A stretch of DNA of 29,855 nt from a virus (lineage: Duplodnaviria > Heunggongvirae > Uroviricota > Caudoviricetes). The position numbers were made by a program, and so were the translations under genes. The notes under the pieces were generated by a model, which searched no databases, had not been told where the DNA came from, and was given only the letters and a program-made list of their open reading frames with translations. Below are positions 7,769 through 26,856 of this stretch, piece after piece (positions within the stretch are counted from its first letter, which is position 1; every line of letters begins with the position of its first letter). The DNA lies in IMG/VR virus record IMGVR_UViG_3300033463_000034. One strand, 5' to 3'.

Positions 7769-8184
7769 AATATCAATTCCTTTCTAAATATTTTATTTGA
7801 GTTTTTACCGACCTCCACCTCAGAACTCTAACTGAACTAATTTAATTAAACTTTTTCGGCGGCTAGGGATACTAATTAGTCAACATTACCTAGCTATCCT
7901 TGCTCGTGTTTTGCAACCAGTTCTGCTGTTCTTTATTTTAAGTTGCAGCCCCTAACAACTAACTCATTTTGCTACTAAGTAGCAAGGGATTAGTTCACCT
8001 TCGGTTCTTTCTAAGTAGTACCGAAAACTTAACTATATATATAAAACAAGGACTTTTCAACCTTCGCACGATATTAATTGATTAAACTGGATTTGCACCA
8101 TCGCACAGTTTTATTTTTGTTTTATTTTTTTCTTTTTCTATAATAATTATATAATAATTTTTATAGAAAATCAAAAGTTATTCT

Positions 8185-11570: not shown

Positions 11571-12776
11571 CTATTGATTATTTCCATATTTTGAAGTAAG
11601 ATAAAAATTTGACACTGCTTTAAAAGAATTTACACCATCATAAGTTCTTAAAACAACTCCTTCTCTGTAATCGCCATCAACAACAGAATCTCCTTCTGCA
11701 TATGCAATCATTTCATCTATGCTATTAGGTAATTTAAAATGTTCATCTAATATAGGTACACAAGGTATTCCATATTGAGCTAAATAATTAACCATTATTC
11801 TTGGATTAAATCTTTGAACTCTACCATCATCATAACCAAATATTAAATTAAACACTTTTAAATCAATAGCTTCCATATGATAATCTCGATTTTGTATACC
11901 TTTTCCAAAAGTTTCTCCTTGAATAGTTACGAATTGTAAATCTTTATCTTTATCTAATATATCTTTTAATACTTCTTCTATATGATATTTTTCAGACATT
12001 TGAGTATAAACATTTGTTTCATAAAAACATTGTTTATCTGCTTTATCAAAACATACATTTCTTGAACATACATAGTATTCATATTTATTGCGGCGGCCTC
12101 GTTTCATAGTAAATGTAGTTGAGGTACCATCTATTTTTTCTGTAACAAACCATTCTGTGTTGTCGGGTGGAAATAATTGAGGTAGGTTTTGAACTCTTTC
12201 CTCATCTGTTTTTACTACCCATTCAGGCCAAAATGATGCTTTAGCGTCATGTCTATTTCCTAAGAATAAAAATAATATTTTTTTACCCCATTTTTTATTA
12301 TATAATTTATTTAAAAATTTATATTTAGTAAATAGTTTAGCATTTCTTTGCTTCATTCTTGCATATTTATTTACTGTTAATTTTCTTTTATTATCATCAG
12401 CAACAGAGTAAACAACACCTAATTCTTTAGTTAAGAAATCTCCAACTTCATATTTATCTTTATCCCAACCAAAATCATCAAAAGACATAAGTAAGCCTTG
12501 TGAAATAAAATTACCACGACCTCCAAATGTATATTTTTGAGTTTTAACTTTATAATGTTTAGAAGCTAAAAAAGCATATTGTTCTGTTTCAGGAACTTTA
12601 CTATCAATTTCAAAATAAACAGCTTTATCTCCTATTTGAAAAGTTCCTTTTCTAGTCATAATTTTCCATCCGCCTACAACAGCCGCTTCACAATTATCTG
12701 AACCAATTATAGGTTCTATTGCATCTATATGAACTATATAACAAAGTTCACGTTCTTTAGTTTTTGGGTTAAGCAT
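11571..12776 (-). CDS. ATP-dependent RNA ligase, DRB0094/Rnl5-like with N-terminal OB domain
   Basis: N-terminal I.AIEPI.GSD.CE.A.VGGW...KG.F..GD.AVYFEIDS; ligase motifs EKIDGTS (I), QGETFG (III), VFNL (IIIa), REGVV (IV), FKAVS (V). Confidence 0.9.
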   Translation of the reverse strand: MLNPKTKERELCYIVHIDAIEPIIGSDNCEAAVVGGWKIMTRKGTFQIGDKAVYFEIDSKVPETEQYAFLASKHYKVKTQKYTFGGRGNFISQGLLMSFDDFGWDKDKYEVGDFLTKELGVVYSVADDNKRKLTVNKYARMKQRNAKLFTKYKFLNKLYNKKWGKKILFLFLGNRHDAKASFWPEWVVKTDEERVQNLPQLFPPDNTEWFVTEKIDGTSTTFTMKRGRRNKYEYYVCSRNVCFDKADKQCFYETNVYTQMSEKYHIEEVLKDILDKDKDLQFVTIQGETFGKGIQNRDYHMEAIDLKVFNLIFGYDDGRVQRFNPRIMVNYLAQYGIPCVPILDEHFKLPNSIDEMIAYAEGDSVVDGDYREGVVLRTYDGVNSFKAVSNFYLTSKYGNNQ

Positions 12777-13126: not shown

Positions 13127-13816
13127 TTATTCTATTTCTATAAAATTATTATATAAGCATCTAAATTTATCATCTAACTGGACATCTGTGTGGTAATGTC
13201 CGAATAACCAATGTTTGAATTGAATATTTTTACTCATTTCTTCTAGTCTATCTTCACTAGTATGATCAACTATATCTTCATCAATCATACCTGCTAAAGT
13301 ACATAAAATGAATTTATTCTTATTAAATACTGAAGTTGGACAACAATGAGTTAAGACATAATCATAATTACCTTTAATTCCTTTTATATCTTCTTTGGTT
13401 ATTTGTTCATCTTTCCACCAAGTAAAATGTTCTTCTCTTCTAAATTTATCTATACTATCAGCTCCACCCATACATAAATATTTTTTACCACATAATTCAA
13501 ATGCGCAACCTCGAGGTAAATAATATATATGTTCAGATATTTTACTTAAACCATTTTCTCCCACTGGTATTTGTTTTAATCTATCAAAATTTTCGTGATT
13601 ACCATCTATAAACATTAAATTTACTTCATAATCTTTTTCATACATTTGAATAAAAGCTTTAGCATCTTTGCCATCTTTTCTCCAATATAATCCCATATCG
13701 CCTAATATAATAATAAAATCTCCATATCCTAATTCATATTTTTCAATAAAATTAATAATAGGATAGAAATCTCCATGCTTGTCTCCAGTAATAAATACTC
13801 TATTCATAATAATCAC
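13127..13816 (-). CDS. calcineurin-like metallophosphoesterase
   Basis: GDKHG, LGD, DGNHENF, THCCP and FGHYH motifs. Confidence 0.92.
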   Translation of the reverse strand: MIIMNRVFITGDKHGDFYPIINFIEKYELGYGDFIIILGDMGLYWRKDGKDAKAFIQMYEKDYEVNLMFIDGNHENFDRLKQIPVGENGLSKISEHIYYLPRGCAFELCGKKYLCMGGADSIDKFRREEHFTWWKDEQITKEDIKGIKGNYDYVLTHCCPTSVFNKNKFILCTLAGMIDEDIVDHTSEDRLEEMSKNIQFKHWLFGHYHTDVQLDDKFRCLYNNFIEIE

Positions 13817-14044: not shown

Positions 14045-15090
14045 ATTAATTTTTTGTATGCCTAACACTGGTACATACTTGACGAAACCCTTTAGTGAAC
14101 CAAGTAGTATTCTCATCCCGAGCACTCGATCATCTTGGTTTATACACTCAATTTCTATAGCGCCAGCTCAGTCCTATCAGCTGCGTATTGTTACTTCCCT
14201 TGACTTGAATTGAGGGGTAGCCGCGAGCACACTGTCGTCTTCCCTCTGGACCCGCTTTTATAATCGCGGTAAATGCGCACAATGCTTCCTTTTACCGTTT
14301 TATAATAAAATTGTAAGGGTAGGCATTTCACCTGTCCAACATATCTATTAGGGTTGCGGAGCCTTTATTAATTTGTTCATTGAGCTGCACGAAACGAATA
14401 CACAATTAAGTTATAATCCCTATAACACCCAACGCAGTGAGTACACCACTGGCGTCCCTACTTCGATACCTCTATTTTCTTTCGTCCGTTTATCTTTCGG
14501 CACTTACAATTTTAAATTAAATAATTCGTCTGAGACATATTTTTCCTAACGAGAGTCATGCATGTGAACTGACAGCTGGATTCTTTATTTAAAGACGCTT
14601 CTCCATTTACTCTCTGTTTGATTATAAGGTATGCCTATGAATAAATTATTACTCGCAAATGAGACTAATAGGGATAAACCACACGCTCGCAAATGAGATT
14701 TACATAATTTATTCATAGCCATATCTTATGATATAGCCCAGTATTCATTACTTTATTTTAGCATCTGAAGTTACTAAAATTCTTGTAATTTTCCTGCTCA
14801 TACTACTTCACTTCAGATTAGGGTTTACCAGCAGCTTTCCCTTTTTATAGAGTTTTTCAAAACTCCTTATAAATAAATTATTGCACGGGCGTCAGAGTTC
14901 TATCGAGAAAAGTCACTGACTAGCTTTTACCTTTTGATAATCTTCATCTCGATTGCTAATTGTATAGATTATCATATCAATAATTTATTTATAATGAGAT
15001 TTGAAATGTTCTCTAATAGACCCGAACCATACAAACAGTCTATGTATATCCCCAATATAGAACGATATAGCTTCCAAGAGTGATAATTAT
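14045..15090 (-). ncRNA. candidate ~1-kb large structured ncRNA
   Basis: No ORF; GC-richer than flanks; promoter 15119-15147; terminator ~14000-14030; 15-bp helix 14704-14718/14635-14649; 11-bp long-range helix 14503-14513/14307-14317; many hairpins. Confidence 0.7.
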
Positions 15091-15158
15091 TTTATATTTA
15101 TTTGTTTTTTCTATAATAATTATATAATAATTTTTATAAAAAATCAATTATAATCAAA

Positions 15159-15235
<77 letters not shown>

Positions 15236-15462
15236 ATATTAAGTCTAGATTTATTCAGCCCTAGACAAGCCCGGTTTCATGTTATTTTTGATAAAGGAGT
15301 TAAAACATCACCGCCGCAATCTCTCCTATATTATATATAAGTGGACTTATTGCCGTAGTTTTTAAAGAGAACCTCTGTTTAAGCATTACCCTGTTCACTT
15401 AGTGGGTTTCACAAACTCTTTATTTTCTTTTTTTTTATTACATTTATATTATATAATAATTT

Positions 15463-16014
15463 TTATAAATTATCAATAAAATTTTCCATTTCTTCAATAG
15501 ACATTACTTGATTTATATTTATAAAAGTTCCTTCTAGAAAATTTATCTTTAAATCAGGTATTTTTAATTTTAAATTATCATATATATAATGATTATATTT
15601 ATTATGAAAATAATAATCATTATTATTATAAGTAAATTTTACTGCATATACTTTTATTAAAAAACAATTTTTAATTTTATTTTTTAATTCTTTTAAATCA
15701 CTATCTTTATCAAAAGTATATATCTTTTGAACTTGAATATATGTAGATAAATTATAATCAGATATTTCATATTGTTGTTCTTTTAATTGATTAATTGTTT
15801 CATATAAAGTTTCATCAATTAAATTATTATTTTTAGAAATACCTAAAATAATTTGATTACCTTGATTATCTATTATAGTATATCTATACTTAATTTTAAT
15901 ATTTTTTAATATTAAACTCAAGCCACTTAATATTAATAATATAATTAATATTTTCTGTAATCTATATCTTTTTCTTTGAATTTGTTTTAAATTAATAGTT
16001 TCCATTTTATTCAT
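15463..16014 (-). CDS. membrane-anchored hypothetical protein
   Basis: GGAAAGG RBS; N-terminal basic plus hydrophobic segment. Confidence 0.55.
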   Translation of the reverse strand: MNKMETINLKQIQRKRYRLQKILIILLILSGLSLILKNIKIKYRYTIIDNQGNQIILGISKNNNLIDETLYETINQLKEQQYEISDYNLSTYIQVQKIYTFDKDSDLKELKNKIKNCFLIKVYAVKFTYNNNDYYFHNKYNHYIYDNLKLKIPDLKINFLEGTFININQVMSIEEMENFIDNL

Positions 16015-16138
16015 CCTTTCCTGAGGTAAAATGGAAGGGGAAATAATTTTCCCCAACCGCTTAATTTAATATATATTTTCTTTGGAAGAAATGAAAATAT
16101 GAAATTGATATTATTTAAAGCATTACAATTTCGCTTTT

Positions 16139-16217
16139 AAGTGCCGCGGTTGGAATTGCACCAACATTATAATAACCTAAAGGTTCTTCAATAGTCTTAC
16201 TATTAAACGACAGCGAC
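16139..16217 (-). ncRNA. tRNA-like element A with extended anticodon arm
   Basis: Acceptor GTCGC(T)G/CGCGGC, D stem GTTT/AGAC, T arm GTTGG-TGCAATT-CCAAC; long arm ending AACC-TTTA-GGTT; no CCA. Confidence 0.6.
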
Positions 16218-16436
16218 ATATGAGTGGGAGGTTTGATAAAGGACAACCTCACCGTAAACCTAATCAGAAATAATTAATTATTAATACAATAGCAATATTG
16301 AATTTTTATAACCTAGGCACTATTGTATTTTCGTAGAGCTCTACTACAGATCGCGGCCTCTGCTAAAACCACTATTTAAGGTTAGCCACCTTTAGAATGA
16401 TAATGAGTTTTAAACGATAACTCACAAACGAACGAC

Positions 16437-16519
16437 TAGTGGCGGAAACAAGAATTGAACTTATACCTTCTAATCTACTTATCATAGAAAAGAAATGCTA
16501 CCTTTACACCATTCACGCC
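16437..16519 (-). ncRNA. tRNA-like element B with extended anticodon arm
   Basis: Acceptor GGCG(T)GAA/TTCCGCC, D loop with GG, T arm ATAAG-TTCAATT-CTTGT; arm TCT-TT-TCTA-TGATAAG-TAGA-TT-AGA; ends ACTA. Confidence 0.65.
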
Positions 16520-16525
16520 ATATAA

Positions 16526-16582
16526 CAAGACAGAGTTATTTCTTAAAGCCAACTAGAAATTAAAAATTGCTGTATCTGTCTT
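16526..16582 (-). ncRNA. ACAGCAA stem-loop motif, copy 1
   Basis: AAGACAGA/TCTGTCTT stem enclosing ACAGCAA, directly after a promoter. Confidence 0.6.
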
Positions 16583-16626
16583 TTCTTATATATATTATAA
16601 AATAATTTTTATAAAAAATCAATTAC

Positions 16627-16703
16627 TGGTGGGTTGTCTGAGATTCGAACTCAGGACCCTTACATTAAAAGTGTAATGCTCTAGCCTACTGAGCTAACAA
16701 CCC
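16627..16703 (-). tRNA. tRNA-Lys(TTT)
   Basis: Cloverleaf; TTACA-CTTTTAA-TGTAA; CCA. Confidence 0.97.
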
Positions 16704-16704
16704 A

Positions 16705-17121
16705 TGGTGGACCTGATGGGACTCGAACCCATGTCTTATATACTTCAATTATTAAAAATCTCATTCTTACCTTACAAGTTTTGTATATATCGTTTTATCT
16801 TATTTCTTTACCATATATAAATCTCAAGAATAAGTTCTTATATATTATAGCTCACAATAGCAAATCTATAAGAAAAATTATACTATGCGGCAATCCTTGC
16901 TAGTTAATACGACTACACTTTTTCTGATTGCTTACTGATACTTATGTAGAAGTTACTTAACTTTACGCGAAAGCTACGCAATTAAATGCGAATAAAGATT
17001 TAACTTTATTAGTAATTTTTGAAAATAAGTTTCCATTTATTTTTATAAGTTGCCTTTTAGATAACTGCCTATCACTTGTATTCTAATACTTAAAATATAT
17101 AATCGAAACCAAAACAAGCCC
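16705..17121 (-). ncRNA. ssrA: tmRNA; tag (A)GNLFSKITNKVKSLFAFNCVAFA*
   Basis: Acceptor GGGCTTG/CAGGTCC with G3-U70; T arm and ACCA end; resume context ATAAAT-GGA; tag ORF 16963-17034 ending in hydrophobic/Ala residues. Confidence 0.93.
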
Positions 17122-17131
17122 AAAATTAAAA

Positions 17132-17206
17132 TGGCGGTTCCAGGGGGAATTGAACCCCCATCTCGACAGTGACAGTGTCGTGTCATAACCACTGGACCAT
17201 GGAACC
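17132..17206 (-). tRNA. tRNA-Asp(GTC)
   Basis: Cloverleaf; CGACA-CTGTCAC-TGTCG. Confidence 0.97.
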
Positions 17207-17213
17207 ATAATAA

Positions 17214-17291
17214 TGGTTGGGATGACAGGATTTGAACCTGCGACCTCGCGCTCCCAAGGCGTGCGCTCTAGCCAAACTGAGCCACATCCCA
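17214..17291 (-). tRNA. tRNA-Pro(TGG)
   Basis: Cloverleaf; loop CTTGGGA; T1-A72. Confidence 0.95.
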
Positions 17292-17294
17292 ATA

Positions 17295-17382
17295 TGGTGG
17301 GGAAGGTGGGACTTGAACCCACACGGAACTAAATTCCAACGGATTTTAAGTCCGTCCTGGCTACCAATTACAGCACTCCCCC
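17295..17382 (-). tRNA. tRNA-Leu(TAA)
   Basis: Type II cloverleaf; loop CTTAAAA. Confidence 0.96.
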
Positions 17383-17391
17383 TAATTATAA

Positions 17392-17468
17392 TGGCGCCTC
17401 AAGTAGGACTCGAACCTACGACCCCTTGATTAACAGTCAAGTGCTCTAACCGACTGAGCTATTGAGGC
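17392..17468 (-). tRNA. tRNA-Asn(GTT)
   Basis: Cloverleaf; loop CTGTTAA; G73. Confidence 0.97.
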
Positions 17469-17476
17469 AAATTAAT

Positions 17477-17552
17477 TGGTGACCCCAGCGGGATTCGAAC
17501 CCACGATGCAACCGTGAAAGGGTTGTGTCTTAAACCACTTGACGATGGGGCC
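17477..17552 (-). tRNA. tRNA-Glu(TTC)
   Basis: Cloverleaf; loop CTTTCAC. Confidence 0.97.
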
Positions 17553-17650
17553 ATGATCGCAGCTTTTTTAATAAAGGAGAAAGCTCCAATATACTCAAAC
17601 TCCTACTTTTCTTTTTTCTATAATAATTATATATTATTTTTTATAAAATT

Positions 17651-17884
17651 TCAAGTTTTTACTTTTTGTTTAGATTTTTCATCTTTTGGTCTTTCTATTG
17701 CTTGATAACCATATTGTTTTAACAAATCATCAAATAAAATTCCAGTATTTGGAATATAAGTTCTATAAGCAAGTTCATATGCAATATGATTTACTGTACT
17801 TTGGTCATTTGCTTTATCTGCTAAAATTAAATGATTTAAAAGGGCAACAGTAGACATTTCTCTTACATTTAAAACATCTTGCAT
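17651..17884 (-). CDS. hypothetical protein (ends at TGA; 8 aa longer if read as Trp)
   Basis: AAAGGAG RBS; the TGA overlaps the -35 box of the next promoter. Confidence 0.65.
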   Translation of the reverse strand: MQDVLNVREMSTVALLNHLILADKANDQSTVNHIAYELAYRTYIPNTGILFDDLLKQYGYQAIERPKDEKSKQKVKT

Positions 17885-17915
17885 ATTAATTCTCCTTTTA
17901 TTCTAATTAATTTTT

Positions 17916-18000
17916 TGGTGCGGGAAGCAGGACTTGAACCTGCACGAGCTAAGCTCACCAGTTTCTAAGACTGGAACGGCTACCATTACGCCATTCCCGC
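17916..18000 (-). tRNA. tRNA-Leu(TAG)
   Basis: Type II cloverleaf; loop CTTAGAA. Confidence 0.96.
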
Positions 18001-18003
18001 ATA

Positions 18004-18092
18004 TGGCGGAGAGTTAGGGACTCGAACCCTAAAGCCAGTTACCTGACCAACGGTTTTCAAGACCGCCCGACTACCAATTATCACAACTCTCC
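18004..18092 (-). tRNA. tRNA-Ser(TGA)
   Basis: Type II cloverleaf; loop CTTGAAA; G73. Confidence 0.96.
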
Positions 18093-18103
18093 AAAATTAT
18101 TTA

Positions 18104-18180
<77 letters not shown>

Positions 18181-18184
18181 ATAA

Positions 18185-18270
18185 TGGTGGGCAGGGATGG
18201 ATTTGAACCACCGTAGACCGAAGTCAAGGGATTTACAGTCCCCCGCAATTGACCGCTCTGCCACCTACCC
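18185..18270 (-). tRNA. tRNA-Tyr(GTA)
   Basis: Type II cloverleaf; loop CTGTAAA. Confidence 0.97.
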
Positions 18271-18283
18271 AATTAGAATAATG

Positions 18284-18634
18284 TTATTTATAATATACTG
18301 CATCATACATAGGTGCAAATTGTTTAATATGATTATGAGTTAAAATACCTAATATTTTTTCAGTTCCATCTATTTGTTTTATATAAATATTTGCTATATC
18401 AGTTGTTAAAGCAGACCTTCCTTTTGGAGAGGTCATATATTTAGCAGTTTCTTCTAATTCTTTCATATTAGTTGTATTAATTTCTACGAACCCCATTTTA
18501 CTACGAATAATAAATATTGGTTTACCATTCTCTATTTTTGGTTTAGTATCCATAATACTTCCACACCATCGTATATGATATTCTTCATGAATATCAGTTA
18601 TAATTAAATGAGTTTTAACTAATATTTCATTCAT
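18284..18634 (-). CDS. hypothetical protein
   Basis: Open frame coupled to the upstream ORF; AAGGAG RBS. Confidence 0.75.
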   Translation of the reverse strand: MNEILVKTHLIITDIHEEYHIRWCGSIMDTKPKIENGKPIFIIRSKMGFVEINTTNMKELEETAKYMTSPKGRSALTTDIANIYIKQIDGTEKILGILTHNHIKQFAPMYDAVYYK

Positions 18635-18837
18635 TAATTATTTTCTCCTTGTAAAGAATTAAAAAATTGTATCATATCTTTATTTATTTCAACTGTAGTT
18701 ATATTTTCACTATGAGGAGCTGGTTTAGATTTATGTTTAGGATTATTATTTTTCCAACATTTTAAAAAATGTTTAGAAACCTCTTTTTCCATATCAAATT
18801 CTTTATTACAAGTTGGACATATATATTTCATAATCAT
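18634..18837 (-). CDS. small zinc-finger-like protein
   Basis: CPTC-x12-H-x3-C pattern. Confidence 0.7.
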   Translation of the reverse strand: MIMKYICPTCNKEFDMEKEVSKHFLKCWKNNNPKHKSKPAPHSENITTVEINKDMIQFFNSLQGENN

Positions 18838-18856
18838 TATTCCCTTCCCTAATTAA

Positions 18857-18933
18857 TGGCGGCTCCAGGCTGAATCGAACAGCCGACACCAAGATTTTCA
18901 GTCTTGTGCTCTAACCTACTGAGCTACAGAGCC
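18857..18933 (-). tRNA. tRNA-Phe(GAA)
   Basis: Cloverleaf; loop CTGAAAA. Confidence 0.97.
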
Positions 18934-19012
18934 ATAAAAAGAAACAAGGCACAATTGTTATGATGGAATTGAACCATCTCTTTTTTAACTGAATTTTAAA
19001 AAATTTAACCAC

Positions 19013-19216
19013 TTATTTATTTGCTGTATATGCCTTTACTTCTTCTTTAGCTAATTTTTCTTTTTCCCTATTTTTTTTAGTTCTAGTATCATAGCACCAT
19101 TTACAAGAGCCATGATTACGACAAGTAGGATCAACCGCTTTACAATATGGTTGTCCTTTAGTTCCATATTTAATTCTTTTTTCTTTTCCACTTTTAATTG
19201 CTTTATATAGAGACAT
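19013..19216 (-). CDS. small basic Cys/His protein
   Basis: C-x6-CRNHGSCKWC motif; GGAGGTG RBS. Confidence 0.8.
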   Translation of the reverse strand: MSLYKAIKSGKEKRIKYGTKGQPYCKAVDPTCRNHGSCKWCYDTRTKKNREKEKLAKEEVKAYTANK

Positions 19217-19233
19217 AATGTCTCACCTCCTCA

Positions 19234-19494
19234 TTATGAGGCTGAAGCAACTTTTTCTTCTATTTTTTGCATATTTCTCTTATATCTTCTTCCACTTCCT
19301 GCTGGATGAGCTTCTGCATAAGCTTTTGCTTGTTCAATTAACTCTCTTCCTTTAGCAGATAAATATTTAGAAGCTAATGGGTTCTTTTTTATTTTTTTAT
19401 TTGTTTTTCCTTTTTTATCTAAGTTTGCTTGTGTAATTGTATATTGTCCTTCACCACTATGTGAAGCTCCTCTTCTTTTAGCCATATAAATCAT
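19234..19494 (-). CDS. small basic hypothetical protein
   Basis: Lys/Arg-rich ORF after a promoter; GAAGGA RBS. Confidence 0.7.
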   Translation of the reverse strand: MIYMAKRRGASHSGEGQYTITQANLDKKGKTNKKIKKNPLASKYLSAKGRELIEQAKAYAEAHPAGSGRRYKRNMQKIEEKVASAS

Positions 19495-19626
19495 TCCTTC
19501 TTTCTTTTTTGTTATATATATTATATAATAATTTTATATAAAAATCAATAAAAAATATGCGGCAGCAGGTTAGAGATGAAAAAACGCGAATTATCTTTAT
19601 TTAAGCTGAATCCCGCACATAATTAA

Positions 19627-19700
19627 TGGCAGCGCGACTAGGATTTGAACCCAGATACTCAGTTTTGGAGACTGAAGTCCTACCATTGGACGATCACGCT
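19627..19700 (-). tRNA. tRNA-Trp(CCA)
   Basis: Canonical 74-nt cloverleaf; TCAGT-CTCCAAA-ACTGA; A1-T72; G73. Confidence 0.96.
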
Positions 19701-19705
19701 ATATA

Positions 19706-19800
19706 TGGCAGGGGCTGTAGGATTCGAACCCACACCCACGGTTTTGGAGACCGTTACCCTGGTTTTGAAGACCAGTGTGCTACCCTTACACTAAGCCCCT
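19706..19800 (-). tRNA. tRNA-Trp with two anticodon arms: TCA (opal-reading) plus CCA
   Basis: AGGGGCT TA GTGT AAGGGTA GCAC A [CTGGT CTTCAAA ACCAG] GGTA [ACGGT CTCCAAA ACCGT] GGGT GTGGG TTCGAAT CCTAC AGCCCCT G CCA. Confidence 0.9.
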
Positions 19801-19819
19801 ATAGAATAGGCATTTCCGC

Positions 19820-20188
19820 CTACAACTCTATTAAATAGAAACATTCTTTTGAACAAGCAGTTAAGTGTTTTGGATCTTCTGCCCATTCTTTATAAGTTAT
19901 ATAATCAGATATTTCTACATAATCTTTTAAATCAATATTTAATTTATTTTCATTAATTATATTATAATAATTTTTTAATAAATAATCAAATAAAGATTCA
20001 TCTTTTGAAGTTCTTATTCCTATAGGATACTTTTTATTCATTTCTGCGATTATATCAAAAAATAATTCTTTCCAATAAGCTGTTAATTCATAAGAATATG
20101 ATAAATCATTTAAATCATATTTATTAATTAATAACTTTTTATCTTCTAATTCTTTTAATTGATAATTTTCAATTTTCTTAATTGTCAT
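19820..20188 (-). CDS. hypothetical protein
   Basis: AAGGAGAG RBS before ATG 20188. Confidence 0.6.
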   Translation of the reverse strand: MTIKKIENYQLKELEDKKLLINKYDLNDLSYSYELTAYWKELFFDIIAEMNKKYPIGIRTSKDESLFDYLLKNYYNIINENKLNIDLKDYVEISDYITYKEWAEDPKHLTACSKECFYLIEL

Positions 20189-20324
20189 ATTTTCTCTCCT
20201 TCTCTCTAAAAGTAAAAGGTGACTTAAGTCACCTTTATTTAAAAATAAAGACAACTTTTTTTAATATAAAATTTATTGTCTTTTTGCATTATATCTATAC
20301 ATAATATATTTACAGTTTATATTT

Positions 20325-20433
20325 CTAGACTCTACTTAAATATATTATTTAGTGTATAGACTGTTAAACTGTAACAAAAATACATTTTCTTTTTCCTAAG
20401 TAAACTACTGAATATTTTTGCTGTCTGAGTCTA
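20325..20433 (-). ncRNA. ACAGCAA stem-loop motif, copy 2
   Basis: TAGACTC/GAGTCTA stem enclosing ACAGCAA, directly after a promoter. Confidence 0.55.
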
Positions 20434-20469
20434 TATATATTATATTAAAAATTTTATTTTAAAACAAAT

Positions 20470-20547
20470 TGGAGTACCCAACAGGATTCGAACCTGTGAA
20501 TGCGGAAGTTGCAGTTCCGTGCCTTAAACCAACTTGGCTATAGGTAC
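20470..20547 (-). tRNA. tRNA-Cys(GCA)
   Basis: Cloverleaf; loop CTGCAAC; U73. Confidence 0.96.
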
Positions 20548-20550
20548 ATA

Positions 20551-20624
20551 TGGGGTGACTACTGAGACTCGAACCCAGATAACTAGAGTCACAATCTAGT
20601 GCGTTACCCTTACGCCATAGTCAC
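20551..20624 (-). tRNA. tRNA-His(GTG)
   Basis: Cloverleaf; loop TTGTGAC; C73; genomic -1 base is T. Confidence 0.95.
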
Positions 20625-20668
20625 ACCATTATATTCCAATTTCTTTAAAGATAATGGTCTAACTATTG

Positions 20669-21073
20669 CTAGTACCATAAGCTACCAAAATATTTAATAA
20701 ATAATCTCATTCCATATTTAATTTGTTTTTGTTTATTTTTTGATAATTTTTGCCATTCTTTTGTAGATTTAGATAAATCTGTTATTTGACTTTCATCTAT
20801 TAAATATAATTTGAATCCATTAATCATTTTTTGAATAATTTTTTCCCATTTATTAAAATCTATTCCCATCGGACATCCAATTAAACAATTATCTTGAAAA
20901 TAACGAAGTCTTGAATATATATATAAAGCAAGAGAATAATCTAAACTAAAAAATTCTATTTCAGAAAATCCTTCTTCATTTTCAATATTTCTATCACAAA
21001 TATCTTCACTTTTTTCAAAAGGAAAATCAGTTTCTTTTAAACCTAATTCTTTATAATAATGATTAAATTTCAT
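20669..21073 (-). CDS. hypothetical phage protein
   Basis: EFFSLDYSLALYIYSRLRYF...GMRLFIKYFGSLWY; GAAGGTG RBS. Confidence 0.8.
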   Translation of the reverse strand: MKFNHYYKELGLKETDFPFEKSEDICDRNIENEEGFSEIEFFSLDYSLALYIYSRLRYFQDNCLIGCPMGIDFNKWEKIIQKMINGFKLYLIDESQITDLSKSTKEWQKLSKNKQKQIKYGMRLFIKYFGSLWY

Positions 21074-21197
21074 TTTAACACCTTCTTTATATAATTAGAG
21101 GGCGGCAGACCTCGCTGTAAGTCCCTGGACTGGCGCCCGCGGTAATGCTTTGTACCTTATTTTAAACAAAACCCAACTCTAATTATTAACGCTTTTC

Positions 21198-21617
21198 TTA
21201 CAGATTAAAGGTTGCGTTATTAAAATATATTTTTAAAGGTAGGTATTCTTCTTCAGAAAACATACCACATAAATATTTTTCAAATAAATTATAATAACAT
21301 ATTTTTAAATATATATCATTCATTTTTTCTTTATATATTTCTTCAATAGGTAAAAAATTATAATCAGGTTTTAAACTAATTATTTTTTGCCATACTGAAT
21401 CCATAGTTCTTACTCCTCGAGCAGATAATTCTTCTCTAACAAATTTAGCATAAGAAATAAAATGGTCATAATCATAATCTAATACAAAATTTACTAAAAC
21501 ATGATTAGGAGTTCCATTTTTTTGAATTGCACCAGCTATTGCTGATAATTCTCTCCATTGTGCTTGTAAATGCATTTTTGGCAATGCAGGAATTAAATTT
21601 TTATGCCATAATCTCAT
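21198..21617 (-). CDS. denV: pyrimidine-dimer DNA glycosylase (T4 endonuclease V family)
   Basis: MRLWHKNLIPALPKMHLQAQWRE N-terminal signature; EELSARG. Confidence 0.85.
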   Translation of the reverse strand: MRLWHKNLIPALPKMHLQAQWRELSAIAGAIQKNGTPNHVLVNFVLDYDYDHFISYAKFVREELSARGVRTMDSVWQKIISLKPDYNFLPIEEIYKEKMNDIYLKICYYNLFEKYLCGMFSEEEYLPLKIYFNNATFNL

Positions 21618-21682
21618 AATTATTTCACTTCCTTTTATATAATAATTATATTATAATTTTATATAAAAATCAAATAAAATAA

Positions 21683-22234
21683 TTATTTTATTAACTTATG
21701 TAACAAAGCACCAATAGCATTTCCTATAATAACAATAATAATAAATATTAAAGTATCTAAATTAAGCATTTGACTATTACATATATAAAACATATCTGCA
21801 ATAGAATGCTCAAATCCAGATAATAAGAATGCGGTAACACCGCCAATAGTACCAATAAAGGTATTATATTTTTTATAAGTATCAACAGCAATAAACATTA
21901 AAAATCCACATCCTATAGCTTTTATAAAACTTAATCATAGCGGATTGGCTAATTTAGATAAAATTATAGTATCTGTATTTACTGTTGATGTAAAAGATAT
22001 TAATAATACACCTATTAGATTACCTAAAATATATAATAACATAATAGGAATTTCTTTATATGATTTAATATATCCTATTTTTCCAGTATATAAATTATAT
22101 CCTTGAGCAAGAATAATTATTAAACCAATAGAAAAAAGTAATGAGCCTATTCAAGATCCTCCTGCACCAATACTAGTAAGTGCGGCAATACCTATCATAA
22201 AACCTGCAAAAATTGCTTTGATAAATTTTTTCAT
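21683..22234 (-). CDS. formate/nitrite transporter (FNT) family channel, 183 aa; two TGA=Trp
   Basis: AIFAGFMIG, FSIGL, LYTGKIG, LGNLIG, KAIGCGFLM, GFEHSIADMF; a single frame through TGA 22151-22153 and 21935-21937. Confidence 0.88.
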
Positions 22235-22259
22235 TTTTATCTCCTTTTATCTCAAAAAA

Positions 22260-22351
22260 TGGCGCCCACTGAAGGACTTGAACCTTCGCGCCGATATTAT
22301 CGACCTAAGAGATTAGCAATCTCTCCTCTTCACCAACTTGAGTAAGTGAGC
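22260..22351 (-). tRNA. tRNA-Ser(GCT)
   Basis: Type II cloverleaf; loop TTGCTAA. Confidence 0.96.
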
Positions 22352-22363
22352 ATGTATAAAAAA

Positions 22364-22440
22364 TGGTCCTCGCTCAAGGACTCGAACCTAGGACTTCAAC
22401 CTTGTAAGGGTTGCACTCTAACCAACTGAGTTAAGCGAGG
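22364..22440 (-). tRNA. tRNA-Val(TAC)
   Basis: Cloverleaf; loop CTTACAA. Confidence 0.96.
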
Positions 22441-22450
22441 ATAATAAAAA

Positions 22451-22526
22451 TGGCTGCCGGGGTTGGATTCGAACCAACGCGTGTTACAGTCAAAGTGTAA
22501 TGTGTTACCCACTTCACCACCCGGCA
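22451..22526 (-). tRNA. tRNA-Gln(TTG)
   Basis: Cloverleaf; loop CTTTGAC; T1-A72. Confidence 0.96.
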
Positions 22527-22637
22527 ATAAAATGAAGTGACCCCGTGTTTAAAGAGCTTTCTGCACACTTCACTGACCAGCTCTATATGAGATTTTGCGC
22601 GGAACCCGGTTCAATTCTCCGTGAACCGCGACCGCCG

Positions 22638-22841
22638 CTAAATTTTTATACTGTTTAACTTTGTAATCCCATTCGCTTTTAACTCTCTTTTTATAAGAGC
22701 ATTAGCAAGTTTTTTCATATTGGTAATTTTTTTATATTTTCTATACCAATATAATGCAAGAATAAATCTTTTTTCCACCTTAAATTGGTGGTATTTCAGA
22801 TATGCTTCTGTTTCTTGCTTTAAAAGTTCATTGTTTTCCAT
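22638..22841 (-). CDS. hypothetical basic protein
   Basis: GAAAGTGAG RBS before ATG 22841. Confidence 0.6.
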   Translation of the reverse strand: MENNELLKQETEAYLKYHQFKVEKRFILALYWYRKYKKITNMKKLANALIKRELKANGITKLNSIKI

Positions 22842-22886
22842 AAGTCTCACTTTCTTTTGCTTATTAAGCATATATTTCAAAAATAA

Positions 22887-22963
22887 TGGTGGAGAATAAG
22901 GGACTCGAACCCTTGACCCCCTGCGTGCAAAGCAGGTGCTCTAGCCAACTGAGCTAATTCCCC
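22887..22963 (-). tRNA. tRNA-Ala(TGC)
   Basis: Cloverleaf; G3-U70; loop TTTGCAC. Confidence 0.97.
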
Positions 22964-23080
22964 ATAGATAAAAGTGCGAACTGTGGTTTCATGCCCTTTA
23001 GGTCAGTCTTTATCCTAGTCCTCACACTCCCTAAAGTCGACTGGGCTGACTTGGATACTAGGTTACACTTATATTTAAAA

Positions 23081-23157
23081 TGGTTGCGGCGGAGGGATTC
23101 GGACCCCCGACATATCGGGTATGAACCGATCGCTCTAGCCAACTGAGCTACGCCGCA
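23081..23157 (-). tRNA. elongator tRNA-Met(CAT)
   Basis: Cloverleaf resembling the Bacillota elongator Met tRNA (CGG-TTCATAC-CCG); T loop variant TCCGAAT. Confidence 0.9.
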
Positions 23158-23158
23158 A

Positions 23159-23542
23159 TTAGGCAGGCATTACCGCCTTTTTAATTATTTCTATTTTAAA
23201 TATAATATTATTATATTTAAAAGTTATAAACTTACCACTATTGATAGTATATTCTATTTTATTATCATTCAATTTTTTAACAATCTGTTCCACCACAAAG
23301 TCTTTATCAGCATCTCTAAATGCTTTTTTACCATCATTAACTAGTAAGTTTTTTGCAGTTTTTAAAGATATATCATAAATTTTATTATTAATAAAAATTA
23401 AATTATATATCCCATCTCCAATTAAAGAATATTTTCTTTTATAATTATCATTAAAAATAGATTGTAAAAAATCTTCTCCAAATGGATAATCATATTCCCA
23501 AGTATATTCATATTTTTCAAAAAATTTTCTCATATTTATCAC
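23159..23542 (-). CDS. hypothetical protein with family B C-terminal domain
   Basis: C-terminal DKDFVV...GKFITFKYNNIIFKIEI resembles 1700-2140 and 5102-5518. Confidence 0.7.
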   Translation of the reverse strand: MINMRKFFEKYEYTWEYDYPFGEDFLQSIFNDNYKRKYSLIGDGIYNLIFINNKIYDISLKTAKNLLVNDGKKAFRDADKDFVVEQIVKKLNDNKIEYTINSGKFITFKYNNIIFKIEIIKKAVMPA

Positions 23543-23615
23543 TTTCTTTCTATTAATATTATATAATATTTTTTATAAAAAATAAAGTAATAAATATTAT
23601 TTTGCAAAAATCATA

Positions 23616-23689
23616 TGGAGCGGGTAGCCGGATTCGAACCGGCGTCGTCTGCTTGGAAGGCAGAGGTCCTACCACTGAACGATACCCGC
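23616..23689 (-). tRNA. tRNA-Gly(TCC)
   Basis: Cloverleaf; loop CTTCCAA; U73. Confidence 0.97.
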
Positions 23690-23800
23690 ATATGGTGCCG
23701 AACCTTTTCAAAGCATGGGATCCTCTTGCTTAAGGAGAAGTGCAAGGTTAGGTCGTCATTATACCCCTAATAATCTATGTTTTTAAAATTATATTCAAAA

Positions 23801-23876
23801 TGGTGCCGGCGGTAGGAATTGAACCCACAACCTACTGATTACAAGTCAGTTGCTCTACCGATTGAGCTACGCCGGC
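23801..23876 (-). tRNA. tRNA-Thr(TGT)
   Basis: Cloverleaf; loop CTTGTAA. Confidence 0.97.
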
Positions 23877-23884
23877 ATGAGTGG

Positions 23885-24620
23885 TTTGTTTCTTTTTTTG
23901 GAAGAACAATCCGTAAGAAACCTAATATAATATTATATTATATTATACAACAGCAGTCTAGGCAACCTCAAAATTAGACTTTCTACTCGCACTTCTACTT
24001 TTTGTTTTACCTTATAGGTCGCCGAAGCTAAGCTGGGGCTGTTATCTCCCGTCATTATGGTGGAGTAGTTCACCGCCGCATATCAACACTAGGTTAATAA
24101 GCAAATGTAGAGCCACGCTCTCTACCTGTGCCTTTTAGAGATAAATCTCCTACGAGCCAGCCTTATAGTCTGTATAAAACAGCGAACTCGGTGTCGTGTT
24201 AATGTCAGCTTATATCTCGAACACTCTGACGAACGATTTGCACCCTAATTGGTGCTATTGAATAGATAAATAGGTATGCTCCTTATGGCGGCAGCACTCT
24301 TTTAACCCTATTGCTGTCACGGAGTTATCTACTCAATACCACCAATTAAGTTGGTATAGTAAGAAACTTTCCTAATTTATATTGCGGTATTCAGCCTTTC
24401 TTACCAAATGCCTGGTCCCGCATAAACATAAAAGCAATACTTTTATAAAATAGTTTTTACTATTCCTTCAGTTATGGATAAGCAATAGTCAAGCAACCAT
24501 CAGTCTCTCACACCACTGCGGCGATGAAATTTCTTACGCCCAAATTTCACAAAACGGTCTGGTCTATTTGGCAGAGAAAACTAAAACTTGCCGTGCGTGA
24601 GACAGCCCGCACAAATAACT
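23885..24620 (-). ncRNA. candidate ~730-nt large structured ncRNA
   Basis: No sense-strand ORF; GC-richer; hairpins GTAGAG/CTCTAC, GCACC/GGTGC, AGTCTA/TAGACT, GTGCT/AGCAC, GGTG/CACC; co-oriented with and just upstream of tRNA-Thr. Confidence 0.6.
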
Positions 24621-24627
24621 TAATACT

Positions 24628-24698
24628 CAAGACACTAAAATTAAAATTTAAATCATTTGGCAAATTTAATCTTATAATACTTTTGCTGTTCGTGTCTT
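24628..24698 (-). ncRNA. ACAGCAA stem-loop motif, copy 3
   Basis: AAGACAC/GTGTCTT stem enclosing ACAGCAA, directly after a TTGACA/TATAAT promoter. Confidence 0.6.
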
Positions 24699-24747
24699 AT
24701 TTAATTATCTATATATATTATACTATTATTTTTTTATTTTGTCAATA

Positions 24748-24939
24748 TTATTCATTTTCATCTTCATCTACTATTTTAGCAATTTTAAATTTTACTCCTG
24801 TAAAATCACTTGCATCTAAAATAATATCACAATCATTATATGCAGCTTCAACCTTAGCAATAGCTTCTTCTTCTGAATCTGCTTCTACAATAACTTTCTT
24901 TTTTAAAGTTTCTATTACTTTAACATAATAAGTTTTCAT
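24748..24939 (-). CDS. DpnD/PcfM-like small protein
   Basis: Y.VKVIETLKKKVIVEADSEEEAI.KV...Y....IILDASDF matches my recollection of that family. Confidence 0.7.
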   Translation of the reverse strand: MKTYYVKVIETLKKKVIVEADSEEEAIAKVEAAYNDCDIILDASDFTGVKFKIAKIVDEDENE

Positions 24940-25149
24940 ATTTATACACTCTCCTTTTCTTTTATATAAATATTATATAATATATTTATATAAAAATCAA
25001 TAAATTTAACAAAAGACTAAATAAATAGCCTTTTGTTAAATTTTAATAGAAAGAAGGCTTACGAATTCTAAATATTGAATTCGTTATATATATTTAAAAA
25101 TTGCTTATTAATATTTATAATTTTAGACCTTTTCTTTAAAACAAAAAAA

Positions 25150-25226
<77 letters not shown>

Positions 25227-25229
25227 AAT

Positions 25230-25600
25230 TGAGATCTGCGGAAGCATCCGTCTAAAGATTGATAAATCTCAACTTATATTGCATAGATCGATGCCACCGC
25301 AATGTATATTATAGGAAGTCTCCTTTTTTACTTTACGAATTAGCTTACTGCATAATGTAAGATATTTTTCTCAATTAGCTATTTTGTTACTCATTCTCTT
25401 ACTTATTGGAGAAAAGGTTTTATCTGCAGTTTTATCCTTTACCTTTAGCAATGTTTGATCCGCTGATCCAACGAACTAATTCAACCCATATACATTTGAG
25501 TAGATTTTCTTAATTTAGGACTATATAAATTTTTACCAAATCTACAAAGATTAATTTAGTCCTTATCAAAATTGATAATGTAAATATTACTTATTTATTT
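25230..25600 (-). ncRNA. candidate structured RNA upstream of tRNA-Ile
   Basis: No ORF; own promoter; crossed helices AGGACTA/TAGTCCT and GTAGATTT/AAATCTAC; TTGAGAT/ATCTCAA. Confidence 0.45.
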
Positions 25601-25650
25601 CATATTTACAATTTTATTATATAATATTTTTTTAAAATAATCAAATTTAT

Positions 25651-25971
25651 TTATAAACCTAAAGCATTTAACAAATCTCTAACATTTTGTTTTTCTTCTT
25701 CTGTAGGTTCTATTACTTTTTTTTCAGTTTGATTAAAATTAATACCCTCTTCTTGTTTATTTATAATTGTTTTTTCTCCAGGTAATGCATTATCATCGCC
25801 AGGAACAACATTTTCTTTTGCTGCTGTTAAAGTAACTTTTACTTGAATTTCTTCTCCATCTTCAACAGTAGGAATTCTTATTTCTTTTCCATCATTATAT
25901 AAAAATGCTCCATCAAAAGTAGAAAGTATTTTTTTAGTTATTTCTAATTTACTCGCTTGTCCCCTCGCCAT
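25651..25971 (-). CDS. hypothetical protein
   Basis: GAGGAGG RBS before ATG 25971 (MARGQASK...). Confidence 0.8.
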   Translation of the reverse strand: MARGQASKLEITKKILSTFDGAFLYNDGKEIRIPTVEDGEEIQVKVTLTAAKENVVPGDDNALPGEKTIINKQEEGINFNQTEKKVIEPTEEEKQNVRDLLNALGL

Positions 25972-26800
25972 TAGAATCTTCCTCCTCATTTTTTATATCA
26001 ATCATTAAATTTACTTTTTCTAAATTAACTGATAATTCTTTTATTCTATCACACATTTGACAATTTCCACCTTTAAGGCATTCGCGGCCGCATTTAACTC
26101 TTTTCTTAACAAATCTAGGTACAATATAACGGCTATCAAAAGTGTCTTTTAAACCAATAATAATTTCTTTTAAATCTCCAAACCATTTTTTATCTTTTTT
26201 ATATATACTATATAATAAATCAGAATTTTTATTATCATCAAAAAATTCACATACATCTATATATGGATTGTAAAATTCAATATCTTCAGGTCTAATCCAG
26301 AATTTTCGTAAATCATCTAATTCTTTTCAAGATGATTGTGCTACATTTGGGAAAACTCTAATTTGAACTTTATTTTTGTGAGCTATTGTTGATATTTTAT
26401 CTAATTCAAAACCTAATCCTTCAACAATATATATATCAGAAACACCATAATCAATTAAACCAACTACACGATCCCAATCATTTACTCTTATATTAAAATA
26501 AAAATTAGCTTCAGGATATTCATTTAAAATGACCCCAATTTCTTCATTTTTTCCACCTAAACGAATATAAAGTTTATATTCTTTTTGATATTTTTTTTGA
26601 ATATCTAATGCAGTTTTTATTCAATTATTATTAATTGCTTCTTCAATGTCATCCATACATAAATTAATTCTTTGGTCTTTATGTTTTTCACAAAATTGAA
26701 CTAAAGCATCTTCATTTTCTATTCTTCCATATTGAATATTAATTTCATCAACTTTATCTAAAATTTTGCTACCTCTGTTAAAATTTATACAATATTTCAT
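25949..26800 (-). CDS. 283-aa peptidase-U32-like (Fe-S) protein; two TGA=Trp
   Basis: One frame from ATG 26800 through TGA 26621-26623 and 26327-26329 to TAA 25949. RVFPNVAQSS(W)..FWIRPEDIEFY..YID and C-terminal CGREC-x5-CQMC. Confidence 0.75.
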
Positions 26801-26856
26801 TATTATATAACCTCCTAATAGCAAAAAAGACTTATATGTCTTATTTTACTTTATAA

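Follow-up and report, generated by a model that had tools for sequence, protein, structure and literature searches.

How does a transfer RNA (tRNA) that reads a stop codon become charged by a host aminoacyl-tRNA synthetase that checks the anticodon? For the stop-reading tRNAs of phages, this is an open question that Borges et al., for example, bring up when discussing their results (bioRxiv 10.1101/2021.08.26.457843), and it is raised in an unusual form by a 29,855-nucleotide (nt) stretch of DNA from a virus of the class Caudoviricetes (IMG/VR record IMGVR_UViG_3300033463_000034), referred to below as the window. The phage context of the window is given by its tRNA array, its PHROG matches, and its relatives among viral contigs. 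On its minus strand, at 19706..19800, lies the gene for a 95-nt tRNA that has a tryptophan (Trp)-type body and two complete anticodon-like arms, one with UCA in its loop (arm 1) and one with CCA (arm 2). The comparisons described below suggest that this two-armed tRNA is a functional opal suppressor that inserts Trp, in which arm 1 would decode UGA and arm 2 probably acts as a pseudo-anticodon handle for the tryptophanyl-tRNA synthetase (TrpRS) of the host.

An earlier reading of the same DNA, made from its letters and termed here the sequence-only reading, had described the tRNA as a candidate genetic-code switch and had offered three models for the second arm: a handle for charging by host TrpRS, an arm that is excised with religation of the ends, and a decoy against anticodon nucleases. 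The anatomy, coordinates, and counts in that reading are all correct when compared with the sequence, ARAGORN, Rfam, and the predicted fold. The term “genetic-code switch” overstates the part played by the second arm, as any suppressor tRNA would give such a switch.

Structure of the two-armed tRNA

The two-armed tRNA begins with the acceptor strand AGGGGCU (positions 1-7) followed by UA, a D arm with a 4-base-pair (bp) stem (GUGU-AAGGGUA-GCAC), and a single A. Arm 1 (19775-19759, minus strand; CUGGU-CU[UCA]AA-ACCAG) comes directly after the D stem and N26, which is the canonical position of the anticodon arm, and is followed by the linker GGUA. Arm 2 (19754-19738, minus strand; ACGGU-CU[CCA]AA-ACCGU), with GGUA before it and GGGU after it, occupies the position of the variable arm, and its loop copies the anticodon loop of tRNA-Trp. 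The 3′ part consists of the T arm GUGGG-UUCGAAU-CCUAC, the acceptor strand AGCCCCU, G73, and an encoded CCA end. Each of the two arms has a 5-bp stem and a 7-nt loop; the stems are wholly Watson-Crick paired and differ from each other at two base pairs, and removal of either 21-nt unit leaves 74 nt. A pairing of the arm 2 CCA with a UGG in the D loop was considered and ruled out, the D loop of the window tRNA having GGG.

The five-helix form is the minimum-free-energy structure predicted by RNAfold, and it agrees with the RNAalifold consensus of relatives. Rfam assigns the gene to tRNA (RF00005, 58.2 bits) and not to tRNA-Sec, while ARAGORN labels it tRNA-SeC(tca), 95 nt, because of its UCA anticodon and long variable arm. 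Compared with a canonical tRNA-Trp, the features A1-U72, G73, a 7-bp acceptor stem, and a 5-bp T stem are present, and they are kept in relatives. However, CCA is not found at positions 34-36, where the arm in the anticodon position has UCA and CCA occurs in the extra arm only, and the short variable loop of 4-5 nt is replaced by a 25-nt variable region that contains a 17-nt hairpin. Compared with tRNA-Sec (selC), the UCA anticodon and long variable arm are shared, but the 8/5 (13-bp) acceptor/T domain and 6-bp D stem are not, the window tRNA having a 7/5 domain and a 4-bp D stem. It has the features of a pseudo-anticodon suppressor: a stop-reading anticodon together with a hairpin in the variable position that has a covarying stem and the cognate UCCA in its loop.

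Decoding of UGA

The window encodes 24 tRNAs and a tmRNA-like gene, and the two-armed tRNA is the single tRNA among them with a UCA anticodon, as the sequence-only reading had said in calling it the sole UGA decoder. Arm 1 is presumed to be the part that reads UGA.

What is inserted at UGA is indicated by individual genes that contain in-frame TGAs. A small gene for a membrane protein of the FNT (formate/nitrite transporter) family (21686..22234, minus strand; Pfam PF01226) has two in-frame TGA codons and no TGG, and the two TGAs coincide with the pair of alignment columns that are richest in Trp among 119 homologues (W 48/Y 22 and W 43/Y 31). A 291-codon gene (25952..26824, minus strand) likewise has two in-frame TGAs, and its alignment with homologues from five related loci extends to either side of these; opposite its position 166, the five loci have Y, Y, TGA, S, and F. 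Both genes appear to be clients of the suppressor. The FNT protein, with 183 residues, is short for its family and has more than 1900 similar short homologues, mostly metagenomic, and both of its Trp residues are written TGA.

Across the loci with two-armed tRNAs, the alignment partner of an in-frame TGA is another TGA in 35% of cases, TGG in 21%, and any one other residue in at most 6% (Ser 4%), while TGG stands opposite TGA in 12% of cases; these alignments were scored with TGA as W, which slightly biases single columns. The coding density of the window under genetic codes 11, 4, and 15 is 0.41, 0.53, and 0.48, values that are noisy in AT-rich and tRNA-dense DNA, and gene-level evidence is relied on instead. 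Most genes of the window need no recoding and few do. The earlier description of the window as one where UGA is read as Trp therefore holds at a few genes, such as the FNT and 291-codon genes, and not for the majority. Moreover, it has been reported that 13 of 13 tested phage tRNAs with a UCA anticodon, a set that may or may not include two-armed forms, inserted Trp in E. coli extract (PMC12636597). Because TGA falls on Trp-rich columns in a phage genome with a UCA anticodon, and because these published tRNAs inserted Trp, the two-armed tRNA is best regarded as a Trp opal suppressor and not as a serine (Ser) or selenocysteine (Sec) tRNA.

A Ser- or Sec-type class II tRNA, charged by seryl-tRNA synthetase (SerRS) and reading UGA as Ser or Sec, would share the long variable arm, the G73, and the anticodon UCA of the window tRNA, and it would fit the tRNA-SeC label given by ARAGORN. 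Such an identity is nevertheless highly improbable. The 7/5 rather than 8/5 domain, the 4-bp D stem, and the Rfam assignment all point away from it, and arm 2, with its 5-bp stem, 7-nt loop, and 4-nt linkers, is built differently from Sec-like arms, in which stems measure 6-8 bp, loops 4-5 nt, and linkers about 2 and 1 nt. In addition, TGA aligns with Trp or aromatic residues and the decoded codon does not behave as Ser (4%, against 56% for TGG or TGA), and the published tRNAs gave Trp in all 13 cases.

Occurrence and conservation of the second arm

The stretch that makes up the window occurs in 20 public runs from 11 studies, mostly of bovine gut. For a check of the assembly, the region was compared with contigs from four other studies, namely those of three DNA runs and of one RNA library. 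One DNA run tiles it with contigs matching 19400-19731, 19708-19772 (with no difference), and 19755-20099. A 218-nt metatranscriptome contig covers 19638-19801 and contains both arms, every difference from the window lying outside 19706-19801; such contigs are not proof of expression, as an RNA library can contain DNA. No joint that deletes either 21-nt unit was found in the contigs of the three DNA runs and the RNA library. The two-armed form clearly exists in independent samples and is not an assembly error, which removes the mis-joining of two alleles that the sequence-only reading had named as a danger.

The pattern with both loops was found in 18 viral contigs, which together with the window make 19 loci. 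Their arm 2 stems differ and include ACGGU/ACCGU, ACCGU/ACGGU, CGGGU/ACCCG, GGGGU/ACCUC, UAGGU/ACCUA, AAGGU/ACCUU, CCGGU/ACCGG, and others. In order to avoid circularity, a blind scan set conditions for nothing but arm 1, the T loop, and the presence of a long variable region, with the sequence of arm 2 ignored. It yielded 68 distinct tRNAs, which were then sorted by a feature independent of arm 2, namely an acceptor stem of 7 or 8 bp as judged by how far the discriminator lies from the T loop. UCCA is present in the loop of the extra hairpin in 42 of the 44 tRNAs with a 7-bp acceptor stem and G73 (43 if one mis-fold by the parser is counted), compared to none of the 24 tRNA-Sec-like tRNAs with an 8-bp stem (Fisher p 2e-16). 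The 42 tRNAs span 37 distinct arm 2 stems and very different tRNA bodies, and the arm 2 loops of this family are CUCCAAA (18), GUCCAAA (13), UUCCAAC, GUCCAUA, and a few variants.

The stem of arm 2 is maintained by paired changes. In an alignment of 32 arm 2 17-mers, 96.3% of cells are paired and compensatory changes occur at 5/5 pairs, and the paired fraction and covariation score were matched by none of 500 shuffles. The invariance of UCCA in this 32-sequence alignment is by construction, the unbiased figure being 42/44 against 0/24. RNAalifold, applied to 23 full-length members, predicted the identical five helices unaided, and pairs 27-43 and 28-42 of arm 1 also covary in relatives. Homologs that keep both arms with covarying stems, showing double changes at all five arm 2 pairs, are thus found, and together with the distribution of UCCA they uphold the earlier view that the second arm is neither a fresh duplication nor a product of decay.

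These data also bear on the idea that the extra arm is mainly structural or an anti-identity element, which would stabilize the fold, reject other synthetases, or tune the tRNA for EF-Tu or for the ribosome in competition with release factor 2 (RF2), with a CCA-like loop inherited from a duplicated anticodon arm. The two 21-nt units of the window do resemble a tandem duplication, and long variable arms are identity or anti-identity elements in the tRNAs for Ser, Leu, and Tyr (PMC9976931). However, inheritance leaves unexplained why UCCA is nearly invariant over 37 stems and very different bodies, and the separate motif of the glutamine (Gln) type in suppressors with a CUA anticodon (see the next section) would also have no explanation. 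We regard a mainly structural role as quite unlikely.

The geometry of arm 2 is less strict than its loop. In relatives, stems are 4-7 bp long, mostly 5-6 bp; loops are mostly 7 nt; and linkers range over 0-9 nt, typically about 4-6 nt before and 3-4 nt after the arm. Arm 2 thus appears to be a hairpin of anticodon-arm size on flexible tethers, built unlike the arms of Ser and Sec tRNAs. It could be proposed that such a tRNA is a two-headed decoder, in which alternative stacking lets either arm serve the ribosome so that both UGA and UGG are read. In the window, both arms are perfect 5-bp/7-nt hairpins with 4 nt after each, so that either formally fits the anticodon position, and the arm 2 loops of most relatives can be drawn as a 7-nt NUCCANN. 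However, 24 of the 44 arm 2 stems depart from 5 bp, and loops of 6, 8, or 9 nt also occur; therefore, the conserved trait is the display of UCCA and not an arm ready for the ribosome. Moreover, UGG already has a decoder in these phages. A canonical 74-nt tRNA-Trp(CCA), called by ARAGORN and Rfam and not mentioned in the sequence-only reading, lies at 19627..19700 (minus strand), 6 nt downstream of the two-armed tRNA, with a 4-nt variable loop and an anticodon loop, CUCCAAA, identical to the loop of arm 2; 11 other two-arm loci likewise have their own. Decoding by both arms is very unlikely on these grounds.

The same comparisons address the second model of the sequence-only reading, in which one arm is excised and the ends are religated with the help of an RNA ligase and a phosphoesterase of the phage. 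This would amount to a switch in time between Trp(UCA) and Trp(CCA). Both enzymes are where they had been placed, about 6-8 kb away: an RNA ligase (PF09414, phrog_968) at 11571-12776 and a metallophosphoesterase (phrog_1649) at 13127-13816, each on the minus strand. A 74-nt tRNA would remain after removal of either 21-nt unit. However, no contig joins across either arm and the contig from the RNA library has both; the linkers and stems of relatives vary in length and are not clean 21-nt units, and no cleavage motif is shared. PF09414 is missing from three complete genomes with a two-armed tRNA, one of them from the window's own subgroup, and ligases of the PF09414 type occur in hundreds of phages, a set not examined for two-armed tRNAs. 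To our knowledge, no bacterial pathway of excision and religation of this kind exists. The model is weakly refuted by these observations and is most improbable.

A scan for short variable loops under otherwise equal constraints found 18 viral loci with mixed tRNA bodies, compared to 78 loci for tRNA(UCA) with a long variable region, of which about two thirds of the distinct tRNAs are Trp-bodied. This suggests that the two-armed form is a main route to a phage tRNA(UCA) and not a curiosity. One clear exception (L168:2905-3002, plus strand) combines a Trp-like body and a UCA arm with a variable region of 28 nt in which there is no UCCA hairpin, and is miscalled tRNA-Phe(aaa) by ARAGORN. Among the 120 matches listed for genome contigs, three true two-armed tRNAs(UCA) (L194, L290, and L291) are on contigs binned to bacterial metagenome-assembled genomes (MAGs), L194 being a 6.6-kb contig in a MAG of Phoenicibacter sp.; these may be prophages, phage contigs binned wrongly, or bacterial genes, and no inference on bacterial carriers is drawn from the matches listed. 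A BLAST search of the tRNA region against deposited phages returned only generic tRNA-Trp matches and phage phAss-1.

Charging of the two-armed tRNA

In bacteria, the major elements of Trp identity are G73 as discriminator, the first pair of the acceptor stem, and the anticodon CCA (PMC9976931). In a UCA suppressor, G73 and the first acceptor pair are retained, and part of the CCA anticodon is lost. No gene of family PF00579 (TrpRS/TyrRS) was found in 10 phage genomes with a two-armed tRNA, 9 of them at least 90% complete; these phages therefore depend on the TrpRS of their host. It is because TrpRS depends on G73, the first pair, and CCA, and because the phage has no TrpRS of its own, that a handle role is proposed for arm 2.

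Two further comparisons connect the extra arm with the identity of the suppressor. First, a canonical tRNA-Trp(CCA) of 74-76 nt without an extra arm coexists with the two-armed tRNA in 12 loci and is adjacent to it in 6, which suggests that the extra arm goes with the changed anticodon and not with Trp tRNAs generally. Second, long-arm suppressors with a CUA anticodon were collected with the same kind of arm-blind pattern. YUGA, the core of the Gln anticodon loop, is present in the extra arm of 53 of 64 distinct long-arm CUA suppressors compared to 0 of 45 UCA tRNAs, while UCCA is present in 44 of the 45 UCA tRNAs compared to 3 of the 64 CUA suppressors. The motif in the extra arm thus appears to follow the expected amino acid, Trp for UCA and Gln for CUA. 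TrpRS and glutaminyl-tRNA synthetase (GlnRS) are the two synthetases on which these recodings rely.

The CUA suppressors occur in phages (L314-L392; phAss-1, OQ749652, L001:3051-3141) and have extra-arm loops such as CUCUGAA, CUUUGAA, UCUGA, and others; the paper on phAss-1 does not comment on tRNA structure (PMC10607447). One of them, L392 (IMGVR_UViG_3300028805_000058, 7827-7880, plus strand), combines a Trp-like body and a working CUA anticodon with an arm of the Trp type, GAGGU-GUCCAAA-GCCUC. This tRNA, which suggests that the two arms can be recombined as modules, would decode UAG as Trp should identity be set by the handle.

A mechanism can be proposed from these features. Arm 1, in the normal anticodon position, would pair with UGA on the ribosome. 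Arm 2 would display U33-C34-C35-A36-A37 of an ordinary tRNA-Trp on a stem of anticodon-stem length held by flexible 4-nt linkers, and would thereby offer the anticodon-binding domain of host TrpRS the CCA that is missing from arm 1. During charging, arm 2 may swing into the place of arm 1, or it may give a first docking site; both the contact with TrpRS and its geometry are inferred. GlnRS is a monomer with a single anticodon site. Because a Gln version of the design exists and GlnRS has this one site, it is more likely that arm 2 enters the normal anticodon pocket, by alternative stacking or first docking, than that it uses a spare domain of the TrpRS dimer. Contact of arm 2 with the synthetase may raise charging, by analogy with a synthetic tRNA design (PMC7590224). 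More broadly, the balance of evidence tips slightly toward a natural class of phage tRNAs that separates a decoding arm, which reads the stop codon, from an identity arm, which presents CCA to TrpRS or CUG/UUG to GlnRS.

The conserved loop and covarying stems indicate recognition by some factor without naming it, and arm 2 could instead be a decoy, shield, or binding site for a factor other than TrpRS, for example an anticodon nuclease or defence factor directed at tRNA-Trp, a modification enzyme, or a phage regulator. Besides its RNA ligase and metallophosphoesterase, the window encodes a Ro-like RNA-binding protein, and such a set is typical of phages that face tRNA cleavage. However, a decoy need not be confined to the suppressor, yet the tRNA-Trp(CCA) copies of the same phages are without the arm, and the match between motif and amino acid in each suppressor fits two anticodon-dependent synthetases better than two nuclease specificities. 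The decoy against anticodon nucleases that the sequence-only reading had listed thus keeps a place among the explanations but accounts for less than a charging handle does, and we consider this group of roles unlikely.

The use of arm 2 as a charging handle for host TrpRS is favoured by the conserved UCCA, the lack of a phage TrpRS, the armless tRNA-Trp(CCA), and the Gln parallel, and of the three earlier models it is the one that fares best, as a probable role. Several points weigh against it. The proposed contact between TrpRS and arm 2 is deduced from comparison of sequences, and a variable arm normally has its tip at a great distance from the anticodon site. Arm 2 stems of 4-7 bp do not resemble a strict distance ruler. 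Short-variable-loop, Trp-like tRNAs(UCA) are also found in phage contigs that have no TrpRS match, and the handle would therefore be helpful rather than essential. In the synthetic precedent, histidyl-tRNA synthetase (HisRS) mostly required fusion to an additional anticodon-binding domain and the effect was modest, the effects of loop sequence with wild-type HisRS did not strictly track the anticodon, and the author remarks on the long distance between the tip of the arm and the CCA end (Mukai 2020, PMC7590224).

The tRNA array and neighbouring genes

A promoter-like site, TTGATT-17-TATAAT, is located upstream of the two Trp tRNA genes at 19961..19989 (minus strand) by a consensus scan and by repeat families D2/D4, and is a candidate promoter for the pair formed by the two-armed tRNA and tRNA-Trp(CCA). 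It belongs to an AT-rich element of 47-64 nt that is present in nine to ten copies across 15085-25645 (for example 19502-19548 and 19943-19989) and reads TTGATT-17-TATAAT on the minus strand. This repeated element is probably a phage promoter that divides the tRNA array into units. Stretches of the element have very high contig depth in all bovine runs compared, and this depth is not used as evidence of expression.

The tmRNA-like gene lies within the array at 16705-17121 (minus strand). Its tag peptide, as predicted by ARAGORN, ends in ...CVAFA, and it has a full-length match to the Rfam tmRNA model at 32.9 bits (E 2e-11), under the gathering score of 47. In the relatives L063, L121, and L128/L130, a conserved stretch of about 125 nt (…GCACGAAACUGAACCGC…GACGGGGAA…; for example L121:833-959) separates the two-armed tRNA from tRNA-Trp(CCA). 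This stretch has no Rfam match and is absent from the window.

The Ro-like protein is encoded at 28114-29622 (plus strand) and belongs to DUF2828/DUF7788, annotated as “RNA-binding protein” (phrog_850). Together with the RNA ligase and the metallophosphoesterase, it looks like part of an RNA or tRNA repair set.

Comparison with known systems

No published natural tRNA with a pseudo-anticodon arm was found in full-text searches of the literature, including the main papers on recoded phages and non-canonical tRNAs. Borges et al. state that phage suppressor tRNAs may have non-canonical structures and do not mention an extra arm or CCA loop (bioRxiv 10.1101/2021.08.26.457843), and neither is mentioned by Seki et al. 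(PMC12636597). The window phage resembles the gut phages that recode TGA to Trp, in particular the cattle “Agate” lineage with genomes of about 127 kb, which share a UCA anticodon, a tRNA array, early genes in the standard code, some genes with TGA as Trp, and dependence on a tryptophanyl-tRNA synthetase. Cattle-gut origin and TGA recoding are common to both, and a 127,686-bp contig encodes an identical FNT protein. By such likeness, rather than by phylogenetic placement, the window phage may fit “Agate” as described by Borges et al.

The closest precedent is synthetic. Amber-suppressor allo-tRNAs engineered to hold a pseudo-anticodon arm at the variable position are still functional in translation, and their charging can gain in efficiency and specificity from the arm (Mukai 2020, PMC7590224). 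As in the two-armed tRNA, the suppressor anticodon of these allo-tRNAs is in the usual arm, while their variable arm duplicates the cognate anticodon arm and is designed to recruit the anticodon-binding domain of a synthetase. The sequence-only reading knew of no precedent; for designed tRNAs one exists. However, the allo-tRNAs are synthetic, have a 9/3 chassis, accept His, and were mostly used with a HisRS with a fused second domain, while the window tRNA is natural and widespread and has a 7/5 Trp body. The natural design presumably works with an unmodified host enzyme.

Other known RNAs share single aspects of the design. The class II tRNAs (Ser, Leu, bacterial Tyr, and Sec) also have an extra helix between the anticodon arm and T arm, whose use by a synthetase would be common to both; however, class II synthetases read the length and orientation of the arm and not an anticodon-like loop, whereas in the two-armed tRNAs it is the loop that is conserved, and the linkers exceed those of Sec-like tRNAs in length (about 4-6 and 3-4 nt compared to about 2 and 1 nt). 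Hairpins that copy an anticodon loop and are bound at the anticodon site of a synthetase are known from the E. coli thrS operator, which binds threonyl-tRNA synthetase (ThrRS), and from the pseudo-anticodon loops of plant-virus tRNA-like structures (PMC9976931). These mimics are located in mRNA or at the ends of viral genomes and serve regulation or 3′-end charging, while arm 2 is inside a decoding tRNA, beside a different working anticodon.

The problem of charging a UCA tRNA with Trp has also been met by the tRNA-Trp(UCA) of Mycoplasma and Spiroplasma (code 4) and by the phage TrpRS:tRNA(UCA) pairs AP1 and HF2 (PMC12636597). Unlike the two-armed tRNA, these systems have, in our reading, an adapted or supplied synthetase and a short variable loop. 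Among the contigs compared here, a PF00579 enzyme is encoded by 3 of 18 with a short-loop tRNA(UCA) compared to 0 of 10 two-arm genomes, numbers that are too few for significance. The three contigs, L394, L395, and L398, with synthetase loci L411-L413, resemble the published “code-change” TrpRS:tRNA pairs of phages, and two of their three tRNAs have A73.

Implications

The two-armed tRNA is a new structural variant of phage suppressor tRNA. This analysis contributes controls in the form of Sec-like tRNAs, a survey of phage genomes for TrpRS, a comparison with the tRNA-Trp(CCA) copies found alongside, and a link to the pseudo-anticodon work of Mukai. The two-armed architecture would explain why tRNA finders mislabel such genes as tRNA-Sec or miss them. 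If the proposed role of the second arm is true, a spare cognate anticodon carried on a natural tRNA would answer the question of how a host synthetase can charge a stop-reading phage tRNA, and the pseudo-anticodon arm would add a new kind of tRNA identity element. For code engineers, it would offer a ready-made, evolution-tested design of suppressor tRNA for use with unmodified synthetases. For the phages themselves, the split between decoding and identity would, if true, be a natural and modular form of codon reassignment that leaves the host synthetase untouched.

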